From a virus (lineage: Duplodnaviria > Heunggongvirae > Uroviricota > Caudoviricetes): 8,995 bases of DNA. Where the stretch lies: the IMG/VR virus record IMGVR_UViG_2609460067_000017; one strand, 5' to 3'. Position numbers and translations under genes: made by a program. The notes beneath the pieces are model-generated. The model was not told where the DNA came from, made no database searches, and saw nothing but the letters and a program-made list of their open reading frames with translations. Of this stretch, positions 574 to 8,995 are shown one piece after another (position 1 is the first letter of the stretch; the number at the start of each line of letters is the position of its first letter).

Positions 574-801
574 TTCTTTTTCAAATAATGAAACGCCGCG
601 TGGATGCCATTTATCGCACAAGATAGAGTGCATTTATCGCGCGGCGCATCATGCAGCTGCGACGCGGCCATCGAATATGGGGCGGATCTCTGCAACATGT
701 GCCGGGCGTCCATTCAGGTGCCAGCCGTTACGCCAGGTAATGCGGTCAATATGTCTTAACATCGGTCTTTCCTCGGTATAAGTTAAACGCTGGTCAGGCG
801 C

Positions 802-1278
802 TCATGCATGGTGGTCTTGCGCAGTGCGTATCACTGCTCCTCGCGTCGCTACCAGCGCCGCTATTGCTTCGTCAATTTCCTGAATAGTTAACTCTGGCGC
901 GAAGTGGAGATGTACAGCGTTAATCGCTTCCACCCCTTCTTTTGCCGCCAGCGTTGCCAGCAAAACGGGATCGCCCGGCGACTCCAGACGTGCCCGCCGT
1001 TCTGCGGGTAGCACGGCTTTCATCACACTGGCCAGCACCTGAGTTTTTCGGCGCGCCGCCGTTGTCTCGCCACGTAACCAGCGAAAGATTTTCTGCCGAT
1101 TGTTGTTGATGGCTCTCCAGTCCACGTTGCCGTCCGCGTCCTCAAATTCATGTAGTCTCAACTCATCATTGCGTCCCTGACTGAACCAGGCCCGGCAGAT
1201 TTCAATCGTGACGAGTTCCTGCCCTGCCCTTGCCGCCCAGGTCAAAATCTCTTTTTGTAATTCCTCTTGGTTTTCCAT
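802..1278 (-). CDS. YdaT-like prophage regulator in the cII position (hypothetical)
   Basis: 158-aa ORF with SD AGGAGA about 4 nt upstream of the ATG at 1278; lies immediately downstream of the Cro/YdaS-like gene on the same strand. Contains an RQKIFRW-type segment that I recall from the YdaT family; this is memory-based, not searched. Confidence 0.5.
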   Translation of the reverse strand: MENQEELQKEILTWAARAGQELVTIEICRAWFSQGRNDELRLHEFEDADGNVDWRAINNNRQKIFRWLRGETTAARRKTQVLASVMKAVLPAERRARLESPGDPVLLATLAAKEGVEAINAVHLHFAPELTIQEIDEAIAALVATRGAVIRTAQDHHA

Positions 1279-1336
1279 AGCGTCTCCTGTCGCTAAAAAT
1301 TGATTACGCTTAATCAGATTTGGGGCTCACCAACAG

Positions 1337-1567
1337 TTAAGCTGCTTCCGTTTTAGGCAAGCTGTCATCTGGGTTTGGGTAAAGATCCGGTCTAAGATCA
1401 TGAGGGGTCACGCGCCATTCAAGAGCTTCAGATGTGCGCAAAACCTCTTCACCGGGAACCCGTCCTTTGAACCAGAGGCTTACCGTTTGTGGTTTTTTCC
1501 CTAATCGCCGCCCTAACTCGGATTGACTCATTACGGAAAGAATTTTGTCTTGCAGTTGTTTATCCAT
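1337..1567 (-). CDS. Cro/YdaS-like helix-turn-helix regulator
   Basis: 76-aa product MDKQLQDKILSVMSQSELGRRLGKKPQTVSLWFKG... with an HTH signature and a C-terminal LRPD motif typical of YdaS/Cro-like proteins. Strong SD AAGGAG (1573-1578, minus strand) 5 nt upstream of the ATG at 1567. The longer track ORF (to 1603) starts at TTG and would run into the operator region, so the shorter start is preferred. Divergent from the repressor gene. Confidence 0.65.
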   Translation of the reverse strand: MDKQLQDKILSVMSQSELGRRLGKKPQTVSLWFKGRVPGEEVLRTSEALEWRVTPHDLRPDLYPNPDDSLPKTEAA

Positions 1568-1592
1568 ATGGACTCCTTGTGTCCGCGTCATC

Positions 1593-1631
1593 ATTACAAA
1601 CAATAACTGTAATTACAAATTATATTTGCAA
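1593..1631. promoter_or_regulatory. Divergent immunity-region operators (two adjacent 19-21 bp imperfect palindromes sharing the half-site TTACAAAT)
   Basis: ATTACAaacaataacTGTAAT (1593-1613) and TTACAAATtatATTTGCAA (1613-1631) lie between the divergent Cro-like and repressor genes; ATTACAAA occurs as a direct repeat at 1593-1600 and 1612-1619. Confidence 0.45.
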
Positions 1632-1665
1632 TGCTCCCTACAATTAAACCTTGTATCCTTACGGT

Positions 1666-2079
1666 ATGAACACAAAAACGAAAAACATGGCTTTTGCTAG
1701 CCGACTACAACGGATTCTAAAAGACTTAGGCTGGTCTCAATCTGAGTTAGCTCGCCATATTGGGGTTACGGCTCAATCAGTTCAGGCATGGTGTAATGGG
1801 GTAACTCCAAGAAAAGATAAATTAGACAAGCTAGCAAAAGTGACCGGATACCCTGTTCATTTTTTCTTCATGAATGAAGGGGAATATTTGGATGAATCCA
1901 CACTACACCCGGGTAATTACAATCAAGAACTAACCCCGCAAGAACAGGCTCTACTGCAACTATTCAGAGGACTGCCTGAGAGCGAAAAAAATAAATTAAT
2001 CAATGAGCTAAAAGAAAAAAGAGAGCACTTCGATCTACTGCTAAAAGAACTACTTGAAGCCAAAAACCAGACAAAATAG
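1666..2079 (+). CDS. XRE-family HTH transcriptional repressor (cI-like immunity repressor)
   Basis: N-terminal HTH (LGWSQSELARHIGVTAQSVQAWCNG) typical of XRE/cI-type repressors; divergent from the Cro-like gene across an operator-containing intergenic region; same strand as the int-ward early operon, as in lambda. Start is ambiguous (TTG 1651, ATG 1666 or ATG 1687); none has a strong SD, so a leaderless or weakly initiated start is possible. TAG stop at 2077-2079. Confidence 0.7.
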   Translation: MNTKTKNMAFASRLQRILKDLGWSQSELARHIGVTAQSVQAWCNGVTPRKDKLDKLAKVTGYPVHFFFMNEGEYLDESTLHPGNYNQELTPQEQALLQLFRGLPESEKNKLINELKEKREHFDLLLKELLEAKNQTK

Positions 2080-2197
2080 TTCAGTTCAAATTTCCAGGCC
2101 AGCCGCTGCTGGCATGCAACTTTCCCCTAACACAAAAACACCTTTACACAGTGAATATTTTTTTGCCCCTCACTACAAATTATTTTTTAAAAACACA

Positions 2198-2226
2198 TTG
2201 ACCATTACAAATACAAATTGTAAAGT
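2198..2226 (+). promoter_or_regulatory. Candidate pL-like early promoter overlapped by a third operator
   Basis: -35-like TTGACC (2198-2203), 17-nt spacer, -10-like TAAAGT (2221-2226); overlapped by TTACAAATacaAATTGTAA (2206-2224), which shares the TTACAAAT half-site with the two operators at 1593-1631. A partial copy CTACAAATTAT lies at 2173-2183. Confidence 0.4.
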
Positions 2227-2562
2227 CACTTTCATCAACAACGCTTACCCAGCGGCAGTTGTTCAGAAACACGTTCTGACAGCCGGAAAGACGGCACCAA
2301 ATTTTGCGCGTCGGCGCCAACACGGTGACAGAGGGAAAGACTTCACCGGCATATGGCACATGTGTCGAAGCGGTCTGGATGGAAGCGGAGCCTTAACGCG
2401 TTGTCTCCATAGCAGGTAGCCGGAATGTGCAAGCCACAGCCAGGTATGAGCGATTGATTCACCATCAAGGCGATACGGTGTGACCACCAGGGAAGAGTCC
2501 TGGCTACAACACGAGAGCGCACTTCATCGACTCAACTTTGAGCTTTGTCGTTAAATTTTGAA

Positions 2563-2648
2563 ATGGCGGAGTGCGCTCCCGGTTGTGGTGAACAGGTGTT
2601 TAACGGGAACTCCCTGCCCGTTACCCGGTTCGATTCCGGGCGCCCATC
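2563..2648 (+). other. tRNA-like element or fragment (T-arm CCCGG-TTCGATT-CCGGG followed by an acceptor-like CGCCCAT)
   Basis: A perfect T-stem/loop motif at 2624-2640 (GGTTCGATTCC embedded in a 5-bp GC stem) followed by 7 nt and a C. No CCA is encoded and I could not pair a clean 5' acceptor strand (ATGGCGG at 2563-2569 pairs only 5 of 7), so this is a tRNA-like structure or tRNA 3' fragment, not a confident tRNA gene. Confidence 0.2.
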
Positions 2649-2672
2649 ATCAATTTGCTGTGTTTAGTCTTT

Positions 2673-2700
2673 GCCCAGTCCGCACGATGGGCCATTTTTT
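2673..2700 (+). terminator. Possible weak intrinsic terminator (GCCCA-N10-TGGGC followed by CA and T6)
   Basis: 5-bp GC-rich stem at 2673-2677 and 2688-2692, then a T6 run at 2695-2700; about 25 nt downstream of the tRNA-like motif. The loop is long, so strength is uncertain. Confidence 0.25.
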
Positions 2701-2981
2701 CACACAGCCAGGTTTTATCGCTGTGCCTGAGTCCCCAACAGGAGAGGCCAAACCCGCAGCGTGACACCAGGGAAAGACCGGAGGAAGTACCACGCCTGAC
2801 CAGCGTTGACCATGAGCCTGACCAGCTCAAAACAGGAAAGACCAGCCCGGGCCTGACCAGCCCTGTACGGTCGTAATGGAAACATAACGACGCCGGAAAC
2901 GTAACCGGCACCCTTTAGATAGCAAAAGACCCGCACAAGGCGGGCCAGTTACCCCGAACGGCGACCAAACCATTCGGATTT

Positions 2982-3005
2982 ATCACAAGTGACCAAACTT
3001 GTGAT
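2982..3005. repeat. Perfect 9-bp inverted repeat (ATCACAAGT-gaccaa-ACTTGTGAT)
   Basis: Perfect palindromic arms at 2982-2990 and 2997-3005; it overlaps copy 1 of the ATGAGGAAAGACCA motif by 2 nt and lies upstream of the first early ORF. Could be a protein-binding site or an RNA hairpin in the early leader. Confidence 0.5.
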
Positions 3006-3017
3006 GAGGAAAGACCA
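3004..3017 (+). repeat. Copy 1 of conserved motif ATGAGGAAAGACCA (followed by ACG, not ATG)
   Basis: The 13-nt core ATGAGGAAAGACC matches the copies at 3427 and 6602 exactly. Here no ORF follows directly, which may mark a decayed gene start or a recombination joint. Confidence 0.6.
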
Positions 3018-3089
3018 ACGACACTGACGCTATGGAAGCTGATCAATATTCGCTGATCGGCTCTGAGTATACATTACCAAGGAGTCGCT

Positions 3090-3410
3090 ATGGAAGCGCG
3101 CACCATCCCAGTAACACTCTTTATTCATTATGCAACTTCAACTTTCAGCCACGAAAAGCTGCTTGTTGCGACTGTTGATATGTCAAAAAATTTTCCAGAC
3201 AGGTACATCCTTCTGGAAAGCCGCGAAATTGAAATTACCGTTAACCAGCCCGAGCCAATCGACATCATCGGTTTACAGGTCGAGCAACTGCGTGAACAAA
3301 AACAGAAAACAGTCGCCGACGCCCAACAGCGTATTGCTGCTATCGATGACAAAATCCAGCAGTTACTTTGCATCGAATACACGCCAGATACCGATGAGCT
3401 CCCCTACTAA
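3090..3410 (+). CDS. Hypothetical early-operon protein (106 aa, predicted coiled-coil C-terminus)
   Basis: ORF with a strong SD AAGGAG (3077-3082) 7 nt upstream of the ATG at 3090; TAA stop at 3408-3410; C-terminal region rich in Q/E/K heptad-like residues. No recognisable family. Confidence 0.6.
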   Translation: MEARTIPVTLFIHYATSTFSHEKLLVATVDMSKNFPDRYILLESREIEITVNQPEPIDIIGLQVEQLREQKQKTVADAQQRIAAIDDKIQQLLCIEYTPDTDELPY

Positions 3411-3426
3411 AAACCACTGACCTGTA

Positions 3427-3440
3427 ATGAGGAAAGACCA
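3427..3440 (+). repeat. Copy 2 of conserved motif ATGAGGAAAGACCA, immediately 5' of the 738-aa ORF start codon
   Basis: The motif ends at 3440 and the ATG is at 3441; the embedded GAGGA acts as the SD. Confidence 0.7.
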
Positions 3441-5657
3441 ATGACCATTTTTAACGGCTTGTTAGAAGCGAAAAAAGGCGCGCTCAAAAACGGCGCGATC
3501 CCGGCGCTGGCCATCGCCATCGCCGCCCCTAACAAAAAAGTTGCCGAGAACATCATCATCGGCAAATTGTGGGAAGCCTACCCTGACCACGGCGACAACT
3601 ATTTCAAACCTAAAATCTGGGAAGATGCCCCGGGCCAACCGCGCCCAGGCGTCGGTGAGTTTGATGAGACGTTTGCCACAGAACACAGTTTTGATGGCGA
3701 AAAATGGGTAGTTAACACTCCTGTTGATTCAGATTGCAGTTCAGCAGATATCTCACAGGTTAGCGACCTGATGAAACTGCCGGCTCGTGAACGATTCGCC
3801 GCCGTTCTGCTGTTCAGCCACGACGCCAACGAAGTCGACAGTGAATTGCTTGTGCAGACGCGTGAATACCTGGAGATGCTCGATAACAGTGATACTGACA
3901 GTGAGGATGAGGTTGACGCGTTTAACCGCATCGTTCTTGATGCCATGGTGGCGTGTAAGCCCATCGAGTACATGCATATTGCTGGATTGAATAATCTGGT
4001 ACATGCAATTTTGGCAAGTTGCGATACCCAGGAACAAAACCCGACCAGTTGGACTATCTCCAAATTTATAAAAAAATGGGTAGAGAATCCCGGTAAACGA
4101 GATGAAATGCTGCCGGAGGTAAAACCAGAAACAGCATCCGCACGTCCTTACAAACAGACTCACGCCACTCTGGATCGTGAAATTGCCTGCGCCCTGTTAC
4201 CTGTTGCCCCGGAAAAAATCACCCCCAGCATCCTGAAAGCGGCAGACGAAATAATCAGTCAGGACAGGGAAGATTTTAAACGCTGGTCAATGGCCTTGCG
4301 CACAACGGATCAGATCCTTGCCTATGACCGCGCATCAGTATTCGGTGTTATTCAGAGCGCCCCCGCAAAAGACACGTACCACTTCCCACAATCCCTGCGC
4401 AGTCACATCGACAACTGGCTGCAAGCTAACGGGCAGCGTGATGCAAATGCTGTTGAAGAGAAGCCAAAGGAAGCAGCACCCAAGGATGATGTAAAAGTCA
4501 CCAACCACGGCGGCGGACGATTCTCAATTGATGGGATGATGTCAGAAACACCCTCAAATCAGGGCGAAAAAAGCGAAGCTGCAAATGCTGGAGAACGTAG
4601 TTTGCAGCAGTTGCGTGAGCAGTTTGTCACGCCTCGCCATGTGTATGACGTACCTGAAAATAACGCCGTATCACAGAGGGAACCTGCAGCTATTACCCTG
4701 GCAGAAGAGACTCCTCCACAAGAACAACTTAGCGAGCAGGTAAAGGATCTGGTGCAGAACGTTGACGCGCTGGTTGAGCGGATCCATGCCGAAGAGCACA
4801 AGCGGCAGAATGCAATCTCAGCTATCGAAACGGAGTTAAAGGACTCAGATGACACGGATAACCTGGCATTGTGGAAGAACGTATTCAAAACCGATGAGCG
4901 CTTCACCAGTGCTTTCTCTCAGAATGGCGGCGGCACATCCATCAACGGCACTTATATAGCGATGAAAGCGACTCGCGAATTTGGGCCATTTGGTATTGGC
5001 TGGGGGGTAGAGGTGCTGGAGGAGCGCTTTGATAAAGGCGCACCAATAGTTCGCAAAAAACAGGTTGGTGAAAAAATAGAATGGGATCTGATTCAAGACG
5101 GTGTTGGCGGGTACCTATGTGAAATGCACCACACCATGAAAGTGAGAGTCTGGTACATATTGAATGGGGTACGCGGTGAGTCCGAGGCTTACGGATGCAC
5201 ACCTTATATCTACGACACTAAATACGGACCAACAAGCGACGGCGAAGCACCGAAGAAATCCTGGACGGATGCTGTTAAGAAAGCGCTATCCCCTCTCGGA
5301 TTCAGCGCCGATATTTTCATGGGCCTGTACGACAATCCGGAATACCGCCAGAGGAATAAAGCTGAGTTTGATATCAAGAATGCCAGCGAGAATGCGGAAG
5401 ATGCTACCCGTCTGCGTAAGGAACTGGATGAGAAGCTTATCAACGTTGCCAATACGCTGGCCGCCGCGGTAACCGCCAACGAAGTAAACAAGGTATTTGG
5501 CCTCATCGCCCGCGAAGTGGATGTACACAGGAAAGCAGCGGAAACCAAAGGCGATAAAGAATATTCATCGTATCTGGGATCACGTCTGCGCCGTATCACC
5601 GACATTAAAACTGAACGCCTCGCCGCCCTTACCGCTGCACAGGAGCAAACAGCATGA
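3441..5657 (+). CDS. Large prophage protein with a C-terminal Rad52-family single-strand annealing (SSAP/Sak-like) domain fused to an uncharacterised ~330-aa N-terminal domain and a charged low-complexity linker
   Basis: Uninterrupted 738-aa ORF. Residues ~470-640 (nt ~4850-5360) carry recalled Rad52 signatures: GGG...YI...FGxxGW (FSQNGGGTSINGTYIAMKATREFGPFGIGWG versus human RAD52 [29 protein letters not shown]) and the helix K..WTDAVKKAL.PLGF......GLYDNPEY (versus [28 protein letters not shown]). The N-terminal ~330 aa have no family I recognise. The TGA stop overlaps the next gene's ATG (ATGA at 5654-5657). Confidence 0.8.
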   Translation: MTIFNGLLEAKKGALKNGAIPALAIAIAAPNKKVAENIIIGKLWEAYPDHGDNYFKPKIWEDAPGQPRPGVGEFDETFATEHSFDGEKWVVNTPVDSDCSSADISQVSDLMKLPARERFAAVLLFSHDANEVDSELLVQTREYLEMLDNSDTDSEDEVDAFNRIVLDAMVACKPIEYMHIAGLNNLVHAILASCDTQEQNPTSWTISKFIKKWVENPGKRDEMLPEVKPETASARPYKQTHATLDREIACALLPVAPEKITPSILKAADEIISQDREDFKRWSMALRTTDQILAYDRASVFGVIQSAPAKDTYHFPQSLRSHIDNWLQANGQRDANAVEEKPKEAAPKDDVKVTNHGGGRFSIDGMMSETPSNQGEKSEAANAGERSLQQLREQFVTPRHVYDVPENNAVSQREPAAITLAEETPPQEQLSEQVKDLVQNVDALVERIHAEEHKRQNAISAIETELKDSDDTDNLALWKNVFKTDERFTSAFSQNGGGTSINGTYIAMKATREFGPFGIGWGVEVLEERFDKGAPIVRKKQVGEKIEWDLIQDGVGGYLCEMHHTMKVRVWYILNGVRGESEAYGCTPYIYDTKYGPTSDGEAPKKSWTDAVKKALSPLGFSADIFMGLYDNPEYRQRNKAEFDIKNASENAEDATRLRKELDEKLINVANTLAAAVTANEVNKVFGLIAREVDVHRKAAETKGDKEYSSYLGSRLRRITDIKTERLAALTAAQEQTA

Positions 5658-6223
5658 GCACTGCTATCGCTATTGCAAAAGAATATGCCAGTCTGATTGA
5701 CCTGTTAGAAACCGCCGATGAACTGACGCCAGAGATGATCGCCGACACGCTTGAAGGCATGGAAGGAGAACTGGGAGACAAACTGGACGCCATGATGGTC
5801 ATCTGCCGTAATTTACAGGGCAATGCCAATACCTGCGCTGAAGAAATGTCTCGCCTGGCAACCCGTAAGACGTCCTTTGAAGGCAAGGAAAAAGCAATTC
5901 GAAAGCATATGCTCACCTGCCTGCAAGCTGCTGGCCTGGATAAACTGAAAACCGCAAAAAACACATTTACTGATGCACAGGGGGCTATCCGGGTAATTAT
6001 CGATAGCAAAGATAAGATCCCGGATGAGTATGAGGGCGTGTCACTTGTTGATGTAGAAACGGTTATTACACCAAACAAGCGAGCCATTAAAGAAGTGATT
6101 GAATCTGCGGAGGCGGTTGCCGCCGAAATACTGGCGCGTGGAGAAACACCACCAGCCGAGTTATTAAACCCGGTACCAGGCGCACATCTGGAACGCGGCG
6201 AACGGTCACTGAGGATACGCTAA
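5654..6223 (+). CDS. Siphovirus Gp157-like protein (prophage recombination/replication-module accessory protein)
   Basis: 189-aa acidic helical protein; its pattern and its position next to an SSAP gene match my recollection of the Sipho_Gp157 family. SD AGGAG at 5641-5645; start overlaps the upstream stop (ATGA); its stop overlaps the next start (TAATG at 6221-6225). Confidence 0.65.
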   Translation: MSTAIAIAKEYASLIDLLETADELTPEMIADTLEGMEGELGDKLDAMMVICRNLQGNANTCAEEMSRLATRKTSFEGKEKAIRKHMLTCLQAAGLDKLKTAKNTFTDAQGAIRVIIDSKDKIPDEYEGVSLVDVETVITPNKRAIKEVIESAEAVAAEILARGETPPAELLNPVPGAHLERGERSLRIR

Positions 6224-6405
6224 TGCTTAAACTCACATTAAAGCGTGGTGACGCGGTTCACCTGGTACTTGCCGATGGTACCAATGGCATTATTGAAGCA
6301 CGGAGCCGCTGCGAACTTGGGCTACACCTGCCAGAAAACATTAAGGTCACTCGGGAGAAATCGGCATTCACCCCACAAGAACTGATTACGCCTAATCAGA
6401 AATAA
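6223..6405 (+). CDS. Small CsrA-like protein (60 aa), translationally coupled to the Gp157-like gene
   Basis: Ungapped alignment by eye to E. coli CsrA (61 aa) over residues 1-47: M1, L2, L4, T5, G9, G33, P37, V42, R44 and E45 are identical, with conservative matches at K7/R7, D10/E10, L34/V34 and I40/V40. This includes the positions corresponding to CsrA L4 and R44, which are important for RNA binding. TAATG overlap with the upstream gene; SD-like GAGGA upstream. Confidence 0.55.
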   Translation: MLKLTLKRGDAVHLVLADGTNGIIEARSRCELGLHLPENIKVTREKSAFTPQELITPNQK

Positions 6406-6454
6406 AAACTCACCATCGCTAGCATTGCGATTCACCAGACACCGGAGGATCACA

Positions 6455-6679
6455 ATGCTGCGATGGCAACCGGGAGCAACTCTGCTCTCCGCATTTGATA
6501 TCAAAATTGGTCGACTGTCGGCCAGCGTCAGGAAACAGACTTTGACCGAGTCTGATATTGCCCGTGCCTGCCAGAAGGCAGATGACGCAATAAGCTACAT
6601 AATGAGGAAAGACCATGAAAAGCGATCACGACATAATCACCAGAGAAGAAATGGTCGAGCTGACGGGAAGCCCACTTAA
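6455..6679 (+). CDS. Hypothetical small basic protein (74 aa from the ATG at 6455)
   Basis: SD GGAGGA (6445-6450) precedes the ATG at 6455; overlaps the start of the next ORF by 65 nt in a different frame. The C-terminus is very basic. Coding status is uncertain. Confidence 0.35.
   Translation: MLRWQPGATLLSAFDIKIGRLSASVRKQTLTESDIARACQKADDAISYIMRKDHEKRSRHNHQRRNGRADGKPT
6602..6614 (+). repeat. Copy 3 of conserved motif ATGAGGAAAGACC, immediately 5' of the excisionase-like ORF start codon
   Basis: The motif ends at 6614 and the ATG is at 6615; identical 13-mer to the copies at 3004 and 3427. Confidence 0.7.
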
Positions 6680-6878
6680 ATCAAAGCAATGTGAGGCTCT
6701 TCGCCGGGCTGGAATTTTCTTCATGGAAAGGGCTGACGGACACCCAAAAACAACCTGGGGCCATTTCATGAACCCAATAAAATTTCGCAATTTACAGGAG
6801 GTGACGACGCGAAAAGATGATGAACCTGATTTTGGAGCAATATTTAATGGCCGGAAAGAGAAAGAACCCAGCAGATAA
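6615..6878 (+). CDS. Excisionase-like / recombination directionality factor candidate (small DNA-binding protein upstream of int, DUF4224-like)
   Basis: 87-aa ORF directly upstream of and overlapping the integrase start by about 30 nt, an arrangement like lambda xis-int. The MVELTGSPLKSKQCEALRRAGIFF segment resembles the small DNA-binding proteins commonly found upstream of phage integrases (recall, not searched). Confidence 0.5.
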   Translation: MKSDHDIITREEMVELTGSPLKSKQCEALRRAGIFFMERADGHPKTTWGHFMNPIKFRNLQEVTTRKDDEPDFGAIFNGRKEKEPSR

Positions 6879-7863
6879 CTGGATGCCGCCTCGTGTTTAC
6901 CAGGGCAAAGCGGCCTACGAATTCAGGAATAAAGATAACAAAGCGATACGCCTGTGCGCATTGGATGCACCACGATCAGCCGTATGGCTGGCATATGAAA
7001 AAGCGGTCGGTGACGAAAAAGAAAGAAATACTTTTCAGGCGCTCACGGAACAATTCATGACCTCCCCTGATTTTATGGATTTGGCAGTCGAAACCCGGAA
7101 AGACTACACAAAATATTCCGGAAAAGTTCTGCCTGTCTTCGGGAAGATCGACCCGGATAAAATCAAACCTGAACATATTCGGCGCTATATGGATCAACGC
7201 GGTTTATCAAGCCGAACTCAGGCAAACAGGGAAAAAAGCTTTATGTCCCGGGTATTCCGTTGGGGTTATGAACGAGGTTATGTTCAGAGGAATCCTTGTC
7301 AGGGAGTTAAACAGTTTAAAGAGAAAGCTCGCGAACGTTATATTACGGATGAAGAATATCAGGCCGTTTATGAAGTGTCTCCTGATGTTGTTCGCGTAGC
7401 AATGGAGATTGCCTACTTATGCGTGGCCAGACAGAGTGATGTACTTTCATTGCAGAAAGACCAGCTGTTCGATTCCGGGATCTACATTCGTCAGGGAAAA
7501 ACCGGCGTTAAGCAAATCAAAGCCTGGTCGCCTCGTCTGCAGAAAGCGATAGCTCTGGCTCGTTCTCTGCCATTAAAAACGGGAATCAGTAGCCTGTTTG
7601 TGATTCATCAAACTACCGGTGGCAAGTATACCCGTGATGGTTTTAACTCTCGTTGGCGTGATGTCAAAGCGGCAGCACAGGAAAAATATCCTCATCTGCA
7701 AATAGACTTCACATTTCATGATCTGAAAGCAAAAGGTATCTCTGATCTGGAAGGCAGCCTGGAAGAGAAGCAAGCAATTTCCGGGCATAAGAACCCGCGA
7801 CAGACAGCAGCATATGACCGGAAAGTTAAAGTAGTGCCCGTAGTTGGTGGCCAGAGAAAATGA
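6847..7863 (+). CDS. int: Lambda-family tyrosine integrase
   Basis: C-terminal catalytic-domain motifs by recall of lambda Int: KTGVK (versus SKTGVKIAIP), FHDLKA (versus FHELRS) and GHKNPRQTAAYDR (versus GHKSDTMASQYRD), with the tyrosine nucleophile near the C-terminus. The start is taken as ATG 6847 (MAGKRK, analogous to lambda MGRRRS); the track ORF begins at 6817. Lies next to the tRNA-Leu 3' end. TGA stop at 7861-7863. Confidence 0.9.
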   Translation: MAGKRKNPADNWMPPRVYQGKAAYEFRNKDNKAIRLCALDAPRSAVWLAYEKAVGDEKERNTFQALTEQFMTSPDFMDLAVETRKDYTKYSGKVLPVFGKIDPDKIKPEHIRRYMDQRGLSSRTQANREKSFMSRVFRWGYERGYVQRNPCQGVKQFKEKARERYITDEEYQAVYEVSPDVVRVAMEIAYLCVARQSDVLSLQKDQLFDSGIYIRQGKTGVKQIKAWSPRLQKAIALARSLPLKTGISSLFVIHQTTGGKYTRDGFNSRWRDVKAAAQEKYPHLQIDFTFHDLKAKGISDLEGSLEEKQAISGHKNPRQTAAYDRKVKVVPVVGGQRK

Positions 7864-7887
7864 ATGATGATGCGTCCAGAGAAAAAT

Positions 7888-7909
7888 CATCTTCGGACGC
7901 ATCTTCGGA
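7888..7909 (+). repeat. Direct repeat CATCTTCGGA x2 (12-bp period) between int and the att/tRNA junction; candidate integrase arm-type binding sites
   Basis: Exact 10-nt copies at 7888-7897 and 7900-7909; they overlap a 9-bp inverted repeat GATGCGTCC (7869-7877) / GGACGCATC (7895-7903). The position matches where an attP arm would end up in an integrated prophage. Confidence 0.3.
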
Positions 7910-7926
7910 AATGAGAAAGAAGATAC

Positions 7927-7950
7927 AAAAAAACCACCCGAAGGTGGTTT
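7927..7950 (-). terminator. Strong rho-independent terminator for the glyW-cysT-leuZ tRNA operon (weakly bidirectional)
   Basis: Minus-strand RNA reads AAACCACC-UUCG-GGUGGUUU followed by a U-tract (A7 on the plus strand at 7927-7933): a GC-rich stem with a UUCG tetraloop about 45 nt downstream of the leuZ 3' end. On the plus strand the same hairpin is followed by only TTT, so it is at best a weak terminator for int. Confidence 0.7.
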
Positions 7951-7993
7951 CACGACACTGCTTATTGCTTTGATTTTATTCTTATCTTTCCCA

Positions 7994-8080
7994 TGGTACC
8001 CGGAGCGGGACTTGAACCCGCACAGCGCGAACGCCGAGGGATTTTAAATCCCTTGTGTCTACCGATTCCACCATCCGGGC
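7994..8080 (-). tRNA. leuZ: tRNA-Leu (anticodon UAA), 87 nt including CCA
   Basis: The reverse complement reads GCCCGGATGGTGGAATCGGTAGACACAAGGGATTTAAAATCCCTCGGCGTTCGCGCTGTGCGGGTTCAAGTCCCGCTCCGGGTACCA: class II tRNA with a long variable arm, anticodon loop TTTAAAA and T-loop GGTTCAAGTCC; matches E. coli leuZ by recall. Confidence 0.95.
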
Positions 8081-8092
8081 TCGGGAAAAAAG

Positions 8093-8166
8093 TGGAGGCG
8101 CGTTCCGGAGTCGAACCGGACTAGACGGATTTGCAATCCGCTACATAACCGCTTTGTTAACGCGCC
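8093..8166 (-). tRNA. cysT: tRNA-Cys (anticodon GCA), 74 nt including CCA
   Basis: The reverse complement reads GGCGCGTTAACAAAGCGGTTATGTAGCGGATTGCAAATCCGTCTAGTCCGGTTCGACTCCGGAACGCGCCTCCA; matches E. coli cysT by recall. Confidence 0.95.
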
Positions 8167-8219
8167 AAATTCTTCAGGCCTTTCAGCCAGACATCCGCTG
8201 ACGCCGATGCCTTTTAAAC

Positions 8220-8295
<76 letters not shown>

Positions 8296-8368
8296 ATTCA
8301 TCAAGCAATCAGTTAATCACTTGATTTTATTATCGTCTGGCAATCAGTGCCGCCGTTCGATGCGTTGC

Positions 8369-8396
8369 ATTCTACTTACCTGGCGCGATGAGTCAA
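8369..8396 (-). promoter_or_regulatory. Candidate sigma70 promoter of the glyW-cysT-leuZ operon
   Basis: On the minus strand: -35 TTGACT (plus 8391-8396), 16-nt spacer, -10 TAGAAT (plus 8369-8374), followed by a GC-rich discriminator (GCAACGC) as in stringently controlled stable-RNA promoters; an A/T-rich block lies upstream. About 70 nt upstream of the glyW 5' end. Confidence 0.5.
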
Positions 8397-8446
8397 CGAT
8401 ATTTTTCACCACTTTTGATCGTTTGCTGAAAATTGCGCCGAAACGA

Positions 8447-8995
8447 TCACTGATCAAGCAAATCTGCACGCGCAGCGCTCAAATATTGCAACATTGACCA
8501 CAGAGTCAGTACCGCAGCCACAAAGAAAAGTGCAATACCGGCGTACTCAACCCAAATATTCGGACGCCACAGCAGCCATGCCAACGCCACCATCTGGGCA
8601 GTGGTTTTCACTTTTCCAATCCAGGAGACAGCCACGCTACTGCGTTTACCCAACTCCGCCATCCATTCGCGTAGCGCAGAAATAATAATTTCACGGGCGA
8701 TCATCGTTGCTGCCGGTAAGGTCACCCACCAGCTGTGGTAATGCTCGGTTACCAGCACCATGGCGATAGCCACGAGAACTTTATCTGCGACAGGGTCAAG
8801 GAAAGCACCAAACCGGGTACTCTGATTCCAGCGGCGTGCCAGAAAACCATCGAACCAGTCAGTCACCGCCGCGACGCAGAAAATGAGCGCGGCGGCAAAC
8901 GGCGACCAGGTGACAGGCAAATAAAAGACCAATACAAAGAATGGGATAAGGATGACACGGAACAGTGTAAGCAACGTAGGGATATTAAATTGCAT
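8447..8995 (-). CDS. pgsA: CDP-diacylglycerol--glycerol-3-phosphate 3-phosphatidyltransferase (phosphatidylglycerophosphate synthase)
   Basis: 182-aa membrane protein [20 protein letters not shown]... with the CDP-alcohol phosphotransferase motif ([10 protein letters not shown]...[10 protein letters not shown]); full length and, by recall, identical or nearly so to E. coli PgsA. The start codon is at the window edge (8993-8995). Confidence 0.97.

Follow-up and report, generated by a model that had tools for sequence, protein, structure and literature searches.

The segment at positions 802-2226 of the window (the whole stretch of DNA analysed, 8,995 nt) very probably constitutes the on/off control (immunity) region of a lambda-like E. 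coli prophage. The prophage is integrated at the leuZ-cysT-glyW tRNA cluster beside pgsA and was found in 475 of 5426 complete E. coli genomes (~9%), ST131 clinical strains among them; the copy in the window is truncated 150 bp beyond ydaT, its left junction being at 651/652. The same layout has already been described experimentally in the Gifsy prophages, CP-933P and Rac, and there is no new biology in the switch itself. The sole new detail is a second box for the CII-like YdaT regulator in front of the excision/integration genes; the region is otherwise a textbook-style immunity switch, and no current view is altered by it.

The repressor, its operators and the promoters

The features of the switch on which the argument rests are the following:

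1666-2079, plus strand: repressor gene, 137 aa, with an N-terminal HTH, a disordered linker and a helical C-terminal domain
1590-1618, minus strand: candidate promoter PR, -35 TTGTAA at 1618-1613, 17-nt spacer, -10 AATGAT at 1595-1590, TG before the -10
1594-1612: operator OR1, TTACAAACAATAACTGTAA, overlapping the candidate PR -10; conserved in relatives L004, L006 and L008
1613-1631: operator OR2, TTACAAATTATATTTGCAA, overlapping the candidate PR -35
1638-1656: operator OR3, CTACAATTAAACCTTGTAT, with a perfect core TACAA-N7-TTGTA; conserved in all relatives
2173-2191: weak operator OL2, CTACAAATTATTTTTTAAA, 32 bp from OL1, a member of repeat family D1
2198-2226, plus strand: PL-like promoter, TTGACC-17-TAAAGT
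2205-2223: operator OL1, TTACAAATACAAATTGTAA, occupying the PL spacer and part of the -10

The initial annotation had described a repressor of about 140 aa without an obvious S24 domain, and both points were borne out. The ATG at 1666, the only repressor start conserved in the relatives, gives a product of 137 aa; no SD precedes it, and TTGTAT stands 9 nt before it. Pfam searches returned HTH_3 only (1.9e-12), the S24 peptidase family PF00717 gave no match to the repressor at E values up to 0.01, and an Ala-Gly cleavage site was absent from the linker. The AlphaFold model was all-helical (pLDDT 73), with a disordered linker at residues 70-89 and a C-terminus formed by two helices; confidence in the C-terminal domain is moderate because the prediction drew on only five close sequences. 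The repressor matches the 434 repressor DNA-binding domain, and its C-terminal motif, LLxLFxxLPESEK, is invariant in the repressor alignment. By tblastn it was 33.3% identical to the Gifsy-1 repressor and to that of Gifsy-2 over residues 10-137 (E 5e-11, 93% coverage), being a full-length homologue of these non-cleaved proteins.

The 98-bp intergenic region between the divergent repressor and cro-like genes contains three 19-bp sites. The operator consensus, the 19-bp palindrome (T/C)TACAAAT-N3-ATTTGTA(A/G), occurs at 1594-1612, 1613-1631 and 2205-2223, the last beginning 126 bp past the repressor stop codon (2079). Three matches to the full palindrome were obtained against 0.04 expected, and none of 200 shuffles reached three. 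The core TACAA-N7-TTGTA with at most one mismatch gave four matches against 0.24 expected (0/200 shuffles reached four), all of them confined to the two control regions. The 8-mer half-site alone, again with at most one mismatch, was not significant (14 matches, 8.98 expected), so that the full palindrome is the basis of the statistics. The sequence used to test these patterns was also the one from which they had been derived, and the independent support for them is comparative. A four-copy 20-nt repeat family (D1) was found independently of the palindrome scan, and mismatches number three in OR1 and four in OL2. The three operators proposed earlier were all present in the sequence, the downstream one at 2205-2223 instead of 2206-2224, one base off; OR3 and the weak OL2 had been overlooked, and the total is five, three at OR and two at OL.

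PL was the only sigma-70 consensus match in a scan of positions 1250-3500, where a single match is below the shuffle mean of 2.7, and it is kept, in BUCT708 as well as in four relatives, as TTGAC(C/G)-17-TA(A/G)A(G/T)T. PR is conserved in the alignment as TTG(T/C)A(A/T)-17-AAT(G/T/C)AT and is treated as a candidate because its score, 8/12, falls under the promoter-scan threshold. Candidate -10 elements for the repressor promoter are TACAAT at 1638-1643 and TTGTAT at 1651-1656, neither with a good -35 and both overlapped by OR3, and the centre of OR2 lies at about -42 relative to the repressor start. An Rfam search identified three tRNAs and one sub-threshold match to RprA, which was rejected as being caused by a terminator. 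The fold after the repressor gene was no better than that of shuffled sequences as a terminator (z = -0.5). Over its first 120 nt the PL transcript offered no covariation for a consensus fold, the relatives being too alike and L013 diverging there, and the putL-like and M3-like antiterminator RNAs of HK639 showed no similarity to the window.

Comparison with relatives was consistent with the operator assignment. Relatives with repressors 65-87% identical, and with the recognition helix TAQSVQAWC in common, retain the five operators and PL. OL1 and OL2 are conserved in four relatives; the outer bases of OL1 change symmetrically there, from T..A to C..G, and the same degenerate right half of OL2 is kept in L004, L006 and L008. 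In BUCT708, where identity is 31% for the repressor and 60% for YdaT and the Cro is unrelated, TTAGA-N4-TCTAA occurs at the same three positions, its own PL included (three matches, 0.17 expected). This co-variation was followed in 80 IMG/VR loci (viral contigs): all 11 with a window-type repressor had TACAA sites in the immunity region, all 16 of BUCT708 type had TTAGA sites, and the remaining 53 had neither there. In six loci YdaT was 97-99% identical to that of the window, the repressor was different and the TACAA sites were absent. The operator is immunity-type-specific and travels strictly with the repressor and Cro type in the 80 loci. Overlap of the operators with the conserved PL and the candidate PR, together with this co-variation, upholds the lambda-like OR/OL architecture suggested at the outset. 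Such an operator map predicts which phages the prophage would exclude.

From the arrangement of these elements we infer binding and regulation as follows. The 137-aa repressor, probably as a dimer, would bind the 19-bp palindromes, three at OR (starting at 1594, 1613 and 1638) and two at OL (2173 and 2205). With OR1 and OR2 occupied, the leftward PR would be blocked; this promoter is predicted to drive the genes for YdaS-like Cro and YdaT-like CII, as well as the replication genes where the copy is intact. Occupation of OL1 would occlude the rightward PL, from which the recombination genes and xis/int would be expressed. OR2 could activate a PRM-like promoter, given its place ~42 bp upstream of the repressor start, which has no SD. 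OR3, overlapping that promoter, would shut it off at high repressor levels or upon binding of the Cro-like protein.

The YdaS/YdaT pair and the boxes of the CII-like regulator

The genes divergent from the repressor gene, the boxes and the integration end of the prophage are these:

1337-1567, minus strand: YdaS-like gene, Cro analogue, 76 aa, with SD AAGGAG at 1578-1573
802-1278, minus strand: YdaT-like gene, CII analogue, 158 aa
1300-1317, plus strand: YdaT box 1, TTGATTACGCTTAATCAG, TTGATT-N6-AATCAG, between ydaS and ydaT
1338-1343, plus strand: candidate -10 TAAGCT of a PRE-like promoter, 20 nt after box 1
6382-6399, plus strand: YdaT box 2, CTGATTACGCCTAATCAG, a perfect box and putative PI-like site upstream of xis/int
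6420-6425, plus strand: candidate -10 TAGCAT of a PI-like promoter, 20 nt after box 2
6615-6878, plus strand: DUF4224 excisionase-like gene
6817-7863, plus strand: tyrosine integrase gene
7994-8080: tRNA-Leu, adjoining the excisionase/integrase genes

The gene in the Cro position had been designated YdaS-like and the next one YdaT-like, and both Pfam families were matched. The YdaS-like product, encoded by the first gene of the operon divergent from the repressor gene, matched PF15943 at 35.1 bits (cut-off 30) and also HTH_3, phrog_35 at 2.7e-24 and, weakly, the Cro structure 3bd1; it is 76-80% identical in homoimmune relatives and unrelated in BUCT708. The YdaT-like product matched PF06254 (2e-15; 57.4 bits, cut-off 21), phrog_163, labelled "CII-like transcriptional activator" (7e-42), and the PDB entries 3c4r (2e-5) and 8bt1, YdaT of CP-933P (1e-4). 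In Rac YdaT, the DNA-recognition residues of helix alpha3 are H56, R57 and W58 (PMC11879457). R66 and W67 of the window's protein align with R57 and W58 and are invariant, and the position of H56 is occupied by Phe. The Pfam, PHROG and PDB matches, together with a YdaT box resembling the published one that lies between ydaS and ydaT, agree with the earlier view of the pair as Cro/CII-like regulators (PMC9986795, PMC8630535, PMC11879457).

Box 1 differs by one mismatch from the footprinted sequence TTGATT-N6-AATCAA (PMC9986795) and lies ~40 bp upstream of ydaT in 80/80 IMG/VR loci. Of 79 loci, 67 have TAAGCT at +20 from it and six more have it at +21, while the 20 bases between them vary. Box 2 was present in all 70 IMG/VR loci with enough upstream sequence, and in 68 of these TAGCAT stands at +20 despite a variable spacer. 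The xis-int box occurs in the window's prophage family (also in L002, L011, L012 and L013), in Pectobacterium phage ZF40 and, upstream of xisR, in Rac of E. coli K-12. Each prophage has exactly two YdaT boxes, and behind each come 20 variable nt and then a TAnnnT hexamer; the same is seen in Rac and ZF40. The second box of Rac, TTGATTATTAATAATCAG, is perfect, lies upstream of xisR-intR in the rcbA-xisR intergenic region (NC_000913.3, about 1413480-1413540) and is followed 21 nt later by the hexamer TAACAT. No YdaT boxes occur in HK639, which has a CII-like protein 35% identical, so that the box is not universal in the wider family.

A YdaT-like tetramer would be expected to bind TGATTA-N4-TAATCA boxes centred ~41 bp upstream of two activator-dependent promoters. 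The promoter with its box at 1300-1317 would run antisense through ydaS into the repressor gene, in the manner of PRE, and that with its box at 6382-6399 would run into xis/int, in the manner of PI. We give about an even chance to the proposal that YdaT-type CII analogues have a second, hitherto unreported target of this kind, a perfect TGATTA-N4-TAATCA placed 20-21 nt before TAnnnT and directly upstream of xis-int. If this box is functional, YdaT would directly switch on recombinase expression; alternatively, its tetramer, having two faces that bind DNA, could form a bridge between the PRE box and the xis-int box, ~5 kb apart. In Rac, a fall in RacR has been reported to raise xisR/intR expression ~100-fold and to cause excision, coupled to YdaT expression, an effect left unexplained (PMC11014345); either activation or bridging would supply a direct mechanism for this coupling. 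Conservation of box 2 would thereby offer a simple link from a CII-like regulator to excision/integration that extends to the much-studied Rac prophage of K-12.

Induction and alternative explanations

Because the repressor has no peptidase domain, induction would be expected to follow the Gifsy route, with a LexA-controlled antirepressor whose gene lies outside the immunity region. On induction the Gifsy-1/2 repressor stays uncleaved, and antirepressors directly controlled by LexA remove it from DNA (PMC3121763). The intact prophage has a 59-aa gene (L001, 8597-8776) behind an ATGACA-17-TATAAA promoter whose -10 is overlapped by a LexA box, CTGTATATTTATACAG, and small homologues of this gene with LexA boxes are found in BUCT708, L011 and L013. 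The 59-aa gene of intact copies is a candidate antirepressor; both the gene and its LexA box are absent from the window, which holds a truncated copy. Its product falls in phrog_340, a family without assigned function, and matched only the same phage family among phage genomes, with no detectable similarity to Gifsy records. It does not co-vary with the DNA specificity of the repressor, L011 combining a window-type repressor with a BUCT708-type small protein. If a Gifsy-type route is right, induction would be an SOS response exerted via the antirepressor, a route that in Salmonella permits cross-talk among co-resident prophages. Induction by RecA-stimulated self-cleavage of the repressor, through a peptidase too diverged to detect or one supplied by, for example, an ImmA/IrrE metallopeptidase, is very improbable. 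An ImmA/IrrE (Peptidase_M78) gene does exist in the intact prophage (L001, 10445-10933), and the SOS link to the repressor is itself a deduction. Nevertheless, the S24 fold is beta-rich and the repressor has only ~47 structured C-terminal residues, all helical; the domain and cleavage-site searches described above gave nothing, and the homologous Gifsy repressors stay uncleaved on induction (PMC3121763). The M78 gene, moreover, belongs to a cargo region, has a small ORF of its own upstream, and is missing from L011 and L013.

The other elements of the switch also admit different readings. That the TTACAAAT palindromes arose by chance in AT-rich intergenic DNA, or are bound only by the Cro-like protein or a host factor and not by the repressor, is similarly very improbable. 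The operator region is AT-rich, the half-site alone is not over-represented, and sequence analysis does not separate repressor binding from Cro binding. Against this, the full sites are far above chance, restricted to the two control regions and conserved in position, and a different palindrome takes their place precisely where the repressor and Cro module has been exchanged. The promoter holding OL1 is ~130 bp downstream of the repressor gene, at a position where action of a CI-type repressor would be anticipated, and operators common to repressor and Cro are the norm (PMC8630535). Slightly less remote, though still improbable, is that YdaS and YdaT form a toxin-antitoxin pair and that the 137-aa protein silences a toxic operon in the manner of RacR and is not part of a lysis-lysogeny switch. 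The names point that way ("Bacterial toxin YdaS" and "Bacterial toxin ydaT" in Pfam, "toxin YdaT family protein" in PGAP), and Rac YdaS/YdaT are toxic when derepressed or overexpressed (PMC11879457; 10.64898/2026.09.06.749655). The two genes, however, occupy the place of cro and cII, between the repressor and replication genes of an otherwise complete lambdoid prophage, and PHROG labels the YdaT family a CII-like activator. YdaT is a DNA-binding tetramer with a defined box (PMC9986795), which is present here at two promoter-like positions, and YdaT of CP-933P is non-toxic, PRM, PR and PRE being regulated by the YdaS and YdaT of that prophage (PMC8630535). The reading of box 2 is the one more open to challenge, and it is possible, if rather unlikely, that TGATTA-N4-TAATCA at 6382-6399 is not PI-like and reflects coding constraint at the 3' end of a 60-aa gene or a looping or repression anchor for YdaT. 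The palindrome overlaps the last codons (..LITPNQK*) of ORF 6223-6405, a promoter there would express xis along with int, unlike lambda PI, and looping by the two DNA-binding faces of the tetramer has been proposed (PMC9986795). Yet the arms of the box stay perfect although the encoded residues change (TP, KP and IN variants), and the fixed TAGCAT behind a variable spacer mirrors the PRE site. The box is found before xisR in Rac as well, and before the xis-int block in ZF40, the genes upstream being unrelated there.

Comparison with known systems

The region resembles lambda in having three OR operators between divergent promoters, with starts ~81 bp apart here and 83 bp apart in lambda, a middle operator near -42 of the repressor promoter, a leaderless repressor start, a second operator set at PL downstream of the repressor gene, and an activator with one site antisense to cro and one near int. 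It differs in that the repressor has no S24 domain, in having two OL sites where lambda has three, and in an OR spacing of 19 and 25 bp against 24 and 23 bp. An N gene, present in lambda, was not seen here. Lambda CII, which recognises a direct repeat, is replaced by an unrelated-looking POU-like tetramer recognising an inverted repeat, and the PI-like promoter, which in lambda is inside xis, would lie upstream of xis and transcribe xis plus int.

Rac (RacR/YdaS/YdaT; PMC11879457, PMC11014345) likewise has a YdaS-YdaT pair divergent from a short repressor gene, and there a reverse promoter, activated through a YdaT box at the beginning of ydaT, expresses the repressor. Rac YdaT, however, is only 34% identical and has further targets in the racR-ydaS intergenic region and at the host rcsA promoter; the relatives found for the window's repressor did not include RacR.

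CP-933P of E. coli O157:H7 (PaaR2/YdaS/YdaT; PMC8630535, PMC9986795) differs in its operators, which are of the GTTTAGTAA type, in a paaA2-parE2 toxin-antitoxin pair behind the repressor gene, and in one strong YdaT site in the published work (PMC8630535, PMC9986795), where the window has two boxes. It shares with the window a non-cleavable CI analogue with leaderless translation, a divergent intergenic region of similar length (~97 bp there, 98 bp here), multiple palindromic operators common to OR and PL, a YdaS in the role of Cro, and a CII-analogous YdaT whose TTGATT-N6-AATCAA box is close to the junction of ydaS and ydaT.

In the Gifsy-1/2 prophages (GfoR/GtgR; PMC3121763) the recognition helix and the operators are different, and the CII analogue belongs to the phage D3 CII-like family and not to YdaT. 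No dinI homologue was seen adjoining the LexA box here, another difference from Gifsy, whose LexA-controlled antirepressors are GfoA/GftA (PMC3121763). In common are a short repressor (136 aa there, 137 aa here) without a peptidase domain and with homology over its full length, the C-terminal motif LLxLFxxLPE(S/A)EK in both repressors, cro-like and cII-like genes divergent from the repressor gene and, in intact copies of the present prophage, a LexA-boxed small gene beyond the replication genes.

Predicted operators, promoters and repressor specificity

The initial annotation had described three operators sharing a half-site, arranged as in the lambda OR and OL regions, and a YdaS/YdaT-like pair in place of Cro/CII. 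The three palindromes are real, one base away from the coordinates first given, but the number of predicted operators is five, three at OR and two at OL, since a further copy was found by repeat analysis and another by comparing relatives. The 8-mer half-site alone was not over-represented (14 matches versus 9.0 expected). The 19-bp site TTACAAAT-N3-ATTTGTAA, with up to three mismatches, gave 3 matches versus 0.04 expected, and three or more were found in 0 of 200 shuffles. Independently, a repeat finder returned a 20-nt family of four copies that adds 2172-2191, and comparison of relatives revealed a fifth site (1638-1656) with a perfect TACAA-N7-TTGTA core. With up to one mismatch, this core had 4 matches versus 0.24 expected, all within the two control regions.

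Features of the immunity region
802-1278, minus strand: YdaT-like gene (PF06254 (YdaT), 2e-15; phrog_163, "CII-like transcriptional activator", 7e-42; structures 3c4r and 8bt1)
1337-1567, minus strand: YdaS-like gene, 76 aa, Shine-Dalgarno AAGGAG (YdaS model, 35.1 bits versus a cut-off of 30; phrog_35)
1618-1590, minus strand: candidate PR (-35 TTGTAA, 1618-1613; 17-nt spacer; -10 AATGAT, 1595-1590, preceded by TG)
1594-1612, 1613-1631 and 1638-1656: predicted operators OR1, OR2 and OR3
1666-2079, plus strand: repressor gene
2173-2191 and 2205-2223: predicted operators OL2 and OL1
2198-2226: PL, TTGACC-17-TAAAGT, with OL1 filling the spacer

PL is kept in four relatives as TTGAC(C/G)-17-TA(A/G)A(G/T)T. 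We infer the leftward promoter PR from a sequence that is kept in the alignment of the OR region and scored under the promoter-scan threshold. Given this assignment, the centres of OR1, OR2 and OR3 would lie at about -20, -39 and -64 relative to the predicted PR start; relative to the repressor start they lie at about -62, -43 and -18. The geometry of the lambda OR is close to these positions. The lambda-like architecture was supported, with OL1 within PL, OR1 and OR2 at the candidate PR, and sites that are kept in relatives and track the repressor type.

In relatives from Salmonella (L004/L012), Klebsiella (L006/L011) and a third genome (L008/L013), the repressor is 65-87% identical and its recognition helix (TAQSVQAWC) invariant; all five sites are in place, and the outer bases of OL1 switch symmetrically from T..A to C..G. 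The phage BUCT708 has the gene order of the window prophage, a repressor 31% identical, an unrelated Cro and a YdaT 60% identical. Here TTAGA-N4-TCTAA has 3 matches versus 0.17 expected, two of them in the region separating the divergent genes and the third within the phage's own PL (TTGACG-17-TAAATT). Among 80 IMG/VR contigs retrieved by YdaT alignment, the association between repressor type and operator motif was complete.

Repressor type and operator motif in the immunity region of 80 IMG/VR contigs
Window-type repressor, 11 loci: TACAA sites in 11/11
BUCT708-type repressor, 16 loci: three TTAGA sites in 16/16
Other repressor types, 53 loci: neither motif

Six contigs encode a YdaT 97-99% identical to that of the window together with a different repressor, and lack TACAA sites. 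The palindromes thus go with the repressor-Cro module, which comes as near to proving them operators as sequence analysis can. BUCT708 (OM816834.1) was deposited as "Stenotrophomonas" phage vB_SmeS_BUCT708, a host that looks doubtful: it shares 72% DNA identity and a common gene order with this enterobacterial prophage, and its repressor is 91-100% identical to those of the 16 contigs.

The repressor and a candidate route of induction

ATG 1666 is the sole start codon kept in four relatives. Because it lacks a Shine-Dalgarno sequence and lies 9 nt downstream of a TTGTAT hexamer, a leaderless or almost leaderless repressor mRNA is suggested; mRNAs of this type have been reported for lambda cI and CP-933P paaR2 (PMC8630535). 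The domain search returned HTH_3 as the only Pfam match, and in the predicted model five helices at the N-terminus (pLDDT 87-91) are joined by a disordered linker (residues 70-89) to two helices at the C-terminus, with zero beta strands. Neither room nor signal is left for an S24 peptidase, in agreement with the initial annotation. The window repressor can be aligned along 93% of its length with the Gifsy-1/2 repressor, at 33% identity, and the two have in common the invariant C-terminal motif LLxLFxxLPE(S/A)EK. A profile-free search with the repressor gave 1145 relatives (E up to 1e-3); a large share were 125-145 aa long and matched along the full length. The region is a lambdoid immunity switch of an already known type, whose Gifsy-type repressor is predicted to be non-cleavable and in which YdaS/YdaT take the places of Cro/CII, a pairing upheld by the Pfam and PHROG matches and by the YdaT structure matches. 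Overall, the first observation and its interpretation were correct but incomplete.

Directly behind the repressor gene, at the rexAB/lysogenic-conversion position, L004, L006 and L008 carry a 157-aa gene without a Pfam match (about 3410-3900 in their own coordinates), with a terminator between it and the operators OL2 and OL1; this cassette is absent from the window.

Gifsy repressors remain uncleaved during induction; they are displaced from DNA by small antirepressors, which LexA controls directly, which are encoded past the replication genes and which are able to act on heteroimmune repressors (Lemire et al.; PMC3121763). No LexA box was found within the window. A single one is present in the intact prophage, CTGTATATTTATACAG, overlapping the -10 of an ATGACA-17-TATAAA promoter 5' of a 59-aa gene just ahead of DUF1367, and homologous small genes with upstream LexA boxes occupy the corresponding position in BUCT708, L011 and L013. 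We give even chances to this gene encoding an antirepressor. It belongs to phrog_340, where no function is assigned, and showed no similarity to Gifsy sequences. Nor does it follow the repressor's DNA specificity, which is compatible with an antirepressor only if the target is the conserved C-terminal domain. If this reading is true, the truncated copy in the window would stay repressed permanently, except where an antirepressor is supplied by another phage in the same cell. Between its nin and replication regions the intact prophage also has cargo (L001 9813-11548 and 14996-15784, outside the window) with an ImmA/IrrE (Peptidase_M78) gene, a 77-aa ORF upstream of it, and an ORF6N-domain (antirepressor-like) gene; either gene could be an alternative route of repressor inactivation, or an unrelated defence module.

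The PL leader and the prophage

About 850 nt without a convincing ORF separate PL from the first early-left gene. This leader is a mosaic of modules kept in BUCT708, L011 and L012, and contains NNNG-GAAAGA-CNNN hairpins with compensatory stem changes between phages.

Features of the leader
2233-3090, plus strand: leader
2281-2294: hairpin, GCCG/CGGC versus CCCG/CGGG
2330-2343: hairpin, GAGG/CUUC versus GCGG/CUGC
2487-2503: hairpin, CCAGG-GAAGAGU-CCUGG versus CCCGG/CCGGG
about 2985-3005: hairpin, GACCAAA loop, covarying stem
2678-2700, plus strand: intrinsic terminator, stem different yet maintained in relatives
2928-2946, minus strand: strong, conserved terminator

The hairpins are similar in form to boxB, yet an N-like gene was not seen, and the HK639 putL-like RNA showed no similarity; the leader may act in RNA-based antitermination or as a regulatory leader. 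The terminator at 2678-2700, whose BUCT708 counterpart is GCCCGGG CGC CCCGGGC followed by seven T, implies that PL transcripts end about 470 nt downstream unless antiterminated. A sub-threshold RprA match arose from it and was discarded. The minus-strand terminator suggests a short leftward transcript starting at about 3090.

The octamer GGAAAGAC occurs 9 times in the window versus 0.26 expected (765-772 on the minus strand; 2285, 2334, 2771, 2835, 3008, 3431, 6606 and 7097 on the plus strand), always on the sense strand of early operons, and 11 times in the intact prophage. Four of these 11 form GAGGAAAGACC, followed after 0-1 nt by a gene ATG: three in the window (74-aa gene, 738-aa gene and DUF4224) and one in L001 only. 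The octamer may serve as a shared cassette for translation initiation or at module boundaries, or as an RNA motif to which a protein binds. In E. coli strain XDL and at least one further genome, a type I-E CRISPR spacer matches 2779-2810 (32/32) beside a functional ATG PAM (2811-2813, minus strand), indicating that E. coli has gained immunity to this family of phages.

The prophage part of the window (652-8995) is shared with E. coli strain Ecol_867, whose lambdoid prophage is 100% identical, and 700-3500 has matches in 475 of 5426 complete E. coli genomes, ST131 being frequent among them. Prophage neighbours are tRNA-Leu, tRNA-Cys, tRNA-Gly and pgsA. Intact copies have the gene layout of lambda: int, DUF4224/xis, Gp157, the 738-aa exonuclease-like gene, the 850-nt leader, PL, repressor gene, OR, ydaS-like, ydaT-like, 74-aa gene, O-like, DnaB, nin region, Q, lysis and morphogenesis. 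Homology ends at 651/652, within the 74-aa gene just past ydaT, where the prophage is joined to a Pin/Gin-like serine recombinase gene (1-573; Resolvase and HTH_7 domains); the two homologies overlap by about 15 bp (652-666), and the side beyond lacks replication, lysis and structural genes. None of the complete E. coli genomes covers at least 80% of 1-1300, so this junction is absent from all of them. It could stem from a recombinase-mediated deletion or inversion, or be an assembly artefact.

YdaT boxes and a possible xis/int promoter

In CP-933P, YdaT footprints on TTGATT-N6-AATCAA by the ydaS/ydaT junction, activating a PRE-like promoter (PMC9986795, PMC8630535); in Rac its binding site is ATGATT-N6-AATCAA, where ydaT begins, and it activates racR via a reverse promoter within ydaS (PMC11879457). 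Two such boxes occur in the window.

1300-1317: YdaT box 1, TTGATTACGCTTAATCAG, between the ydaS-like and ydaT-like genes
6382-6399: YdaT box 2, CTGATTACGCCTAATCAG, about 230 bp 5' of the DUF4224/excisionase-like gene and int

Both are followed, after 20 nt, by a TAnnnT hexamer (TAAGCT, 1338-1343; TAGCAT, 6420-6425). The box centres would lie about 41 bp 5' of the predicted start, which is typical of activators overlapping the -35 region. Box 1 is present in 80/80 IMG/VR loci, and exactly one more box, 4.5-5.6 kb away, in 70/70 of those whose sequence upstream of ydaT runs to at least about 5.4 kb; none of the 80 has a third. TAAGCT is kept at +20 of box 1 in 67/79 loci and TAGCAT at +20 of box 2 in 68/70, the 20-nt stretch between being freely variable at both sites. 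Boxes were not found in HK639, which has a more distant CII-like protein.

The simplest reading of box 2 is a YdaT-activated, PI-like promoter; alternatively, a two-faced YdaT tetramer might use it for DNA looping. The analogy of the PI-like promoter with lambda PI is weakened because, unlike PI, it would transcribe xis too. Between it and the DUF4224 gene lies an unannotated 74-aa ORF (MLRWQPGATLLSAFDIKIGRL...; 6455-6679, plus strand; Shine-Dalgarno GGAGGA) that matches phrog_27062 (1.4e-32), has a conserved protein sequence in BUCT708 and overlaps the DUF4224 start with its 3' end. The YdaT literature accessible to us reports no YdaT site near xis/int, and the second box is a modest, testable addition. 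The two-box layout is found likewise in Pectobacterium phage ZF40 (YdaT 49% identical), where the second box precedes gp04 and the genes for excisionase and integrase, and in Rac of K-12 (YdaT 34% identical), where TTGATTATTAATAATCAG lies 21 nt ahead of TAACAT, immediately 5' of xisR-intR. In Rac, xisR and intR rise about 100-fold as RacR falls, and have been described as "functionally independent but coupled" to YdaT (PMC11014345).
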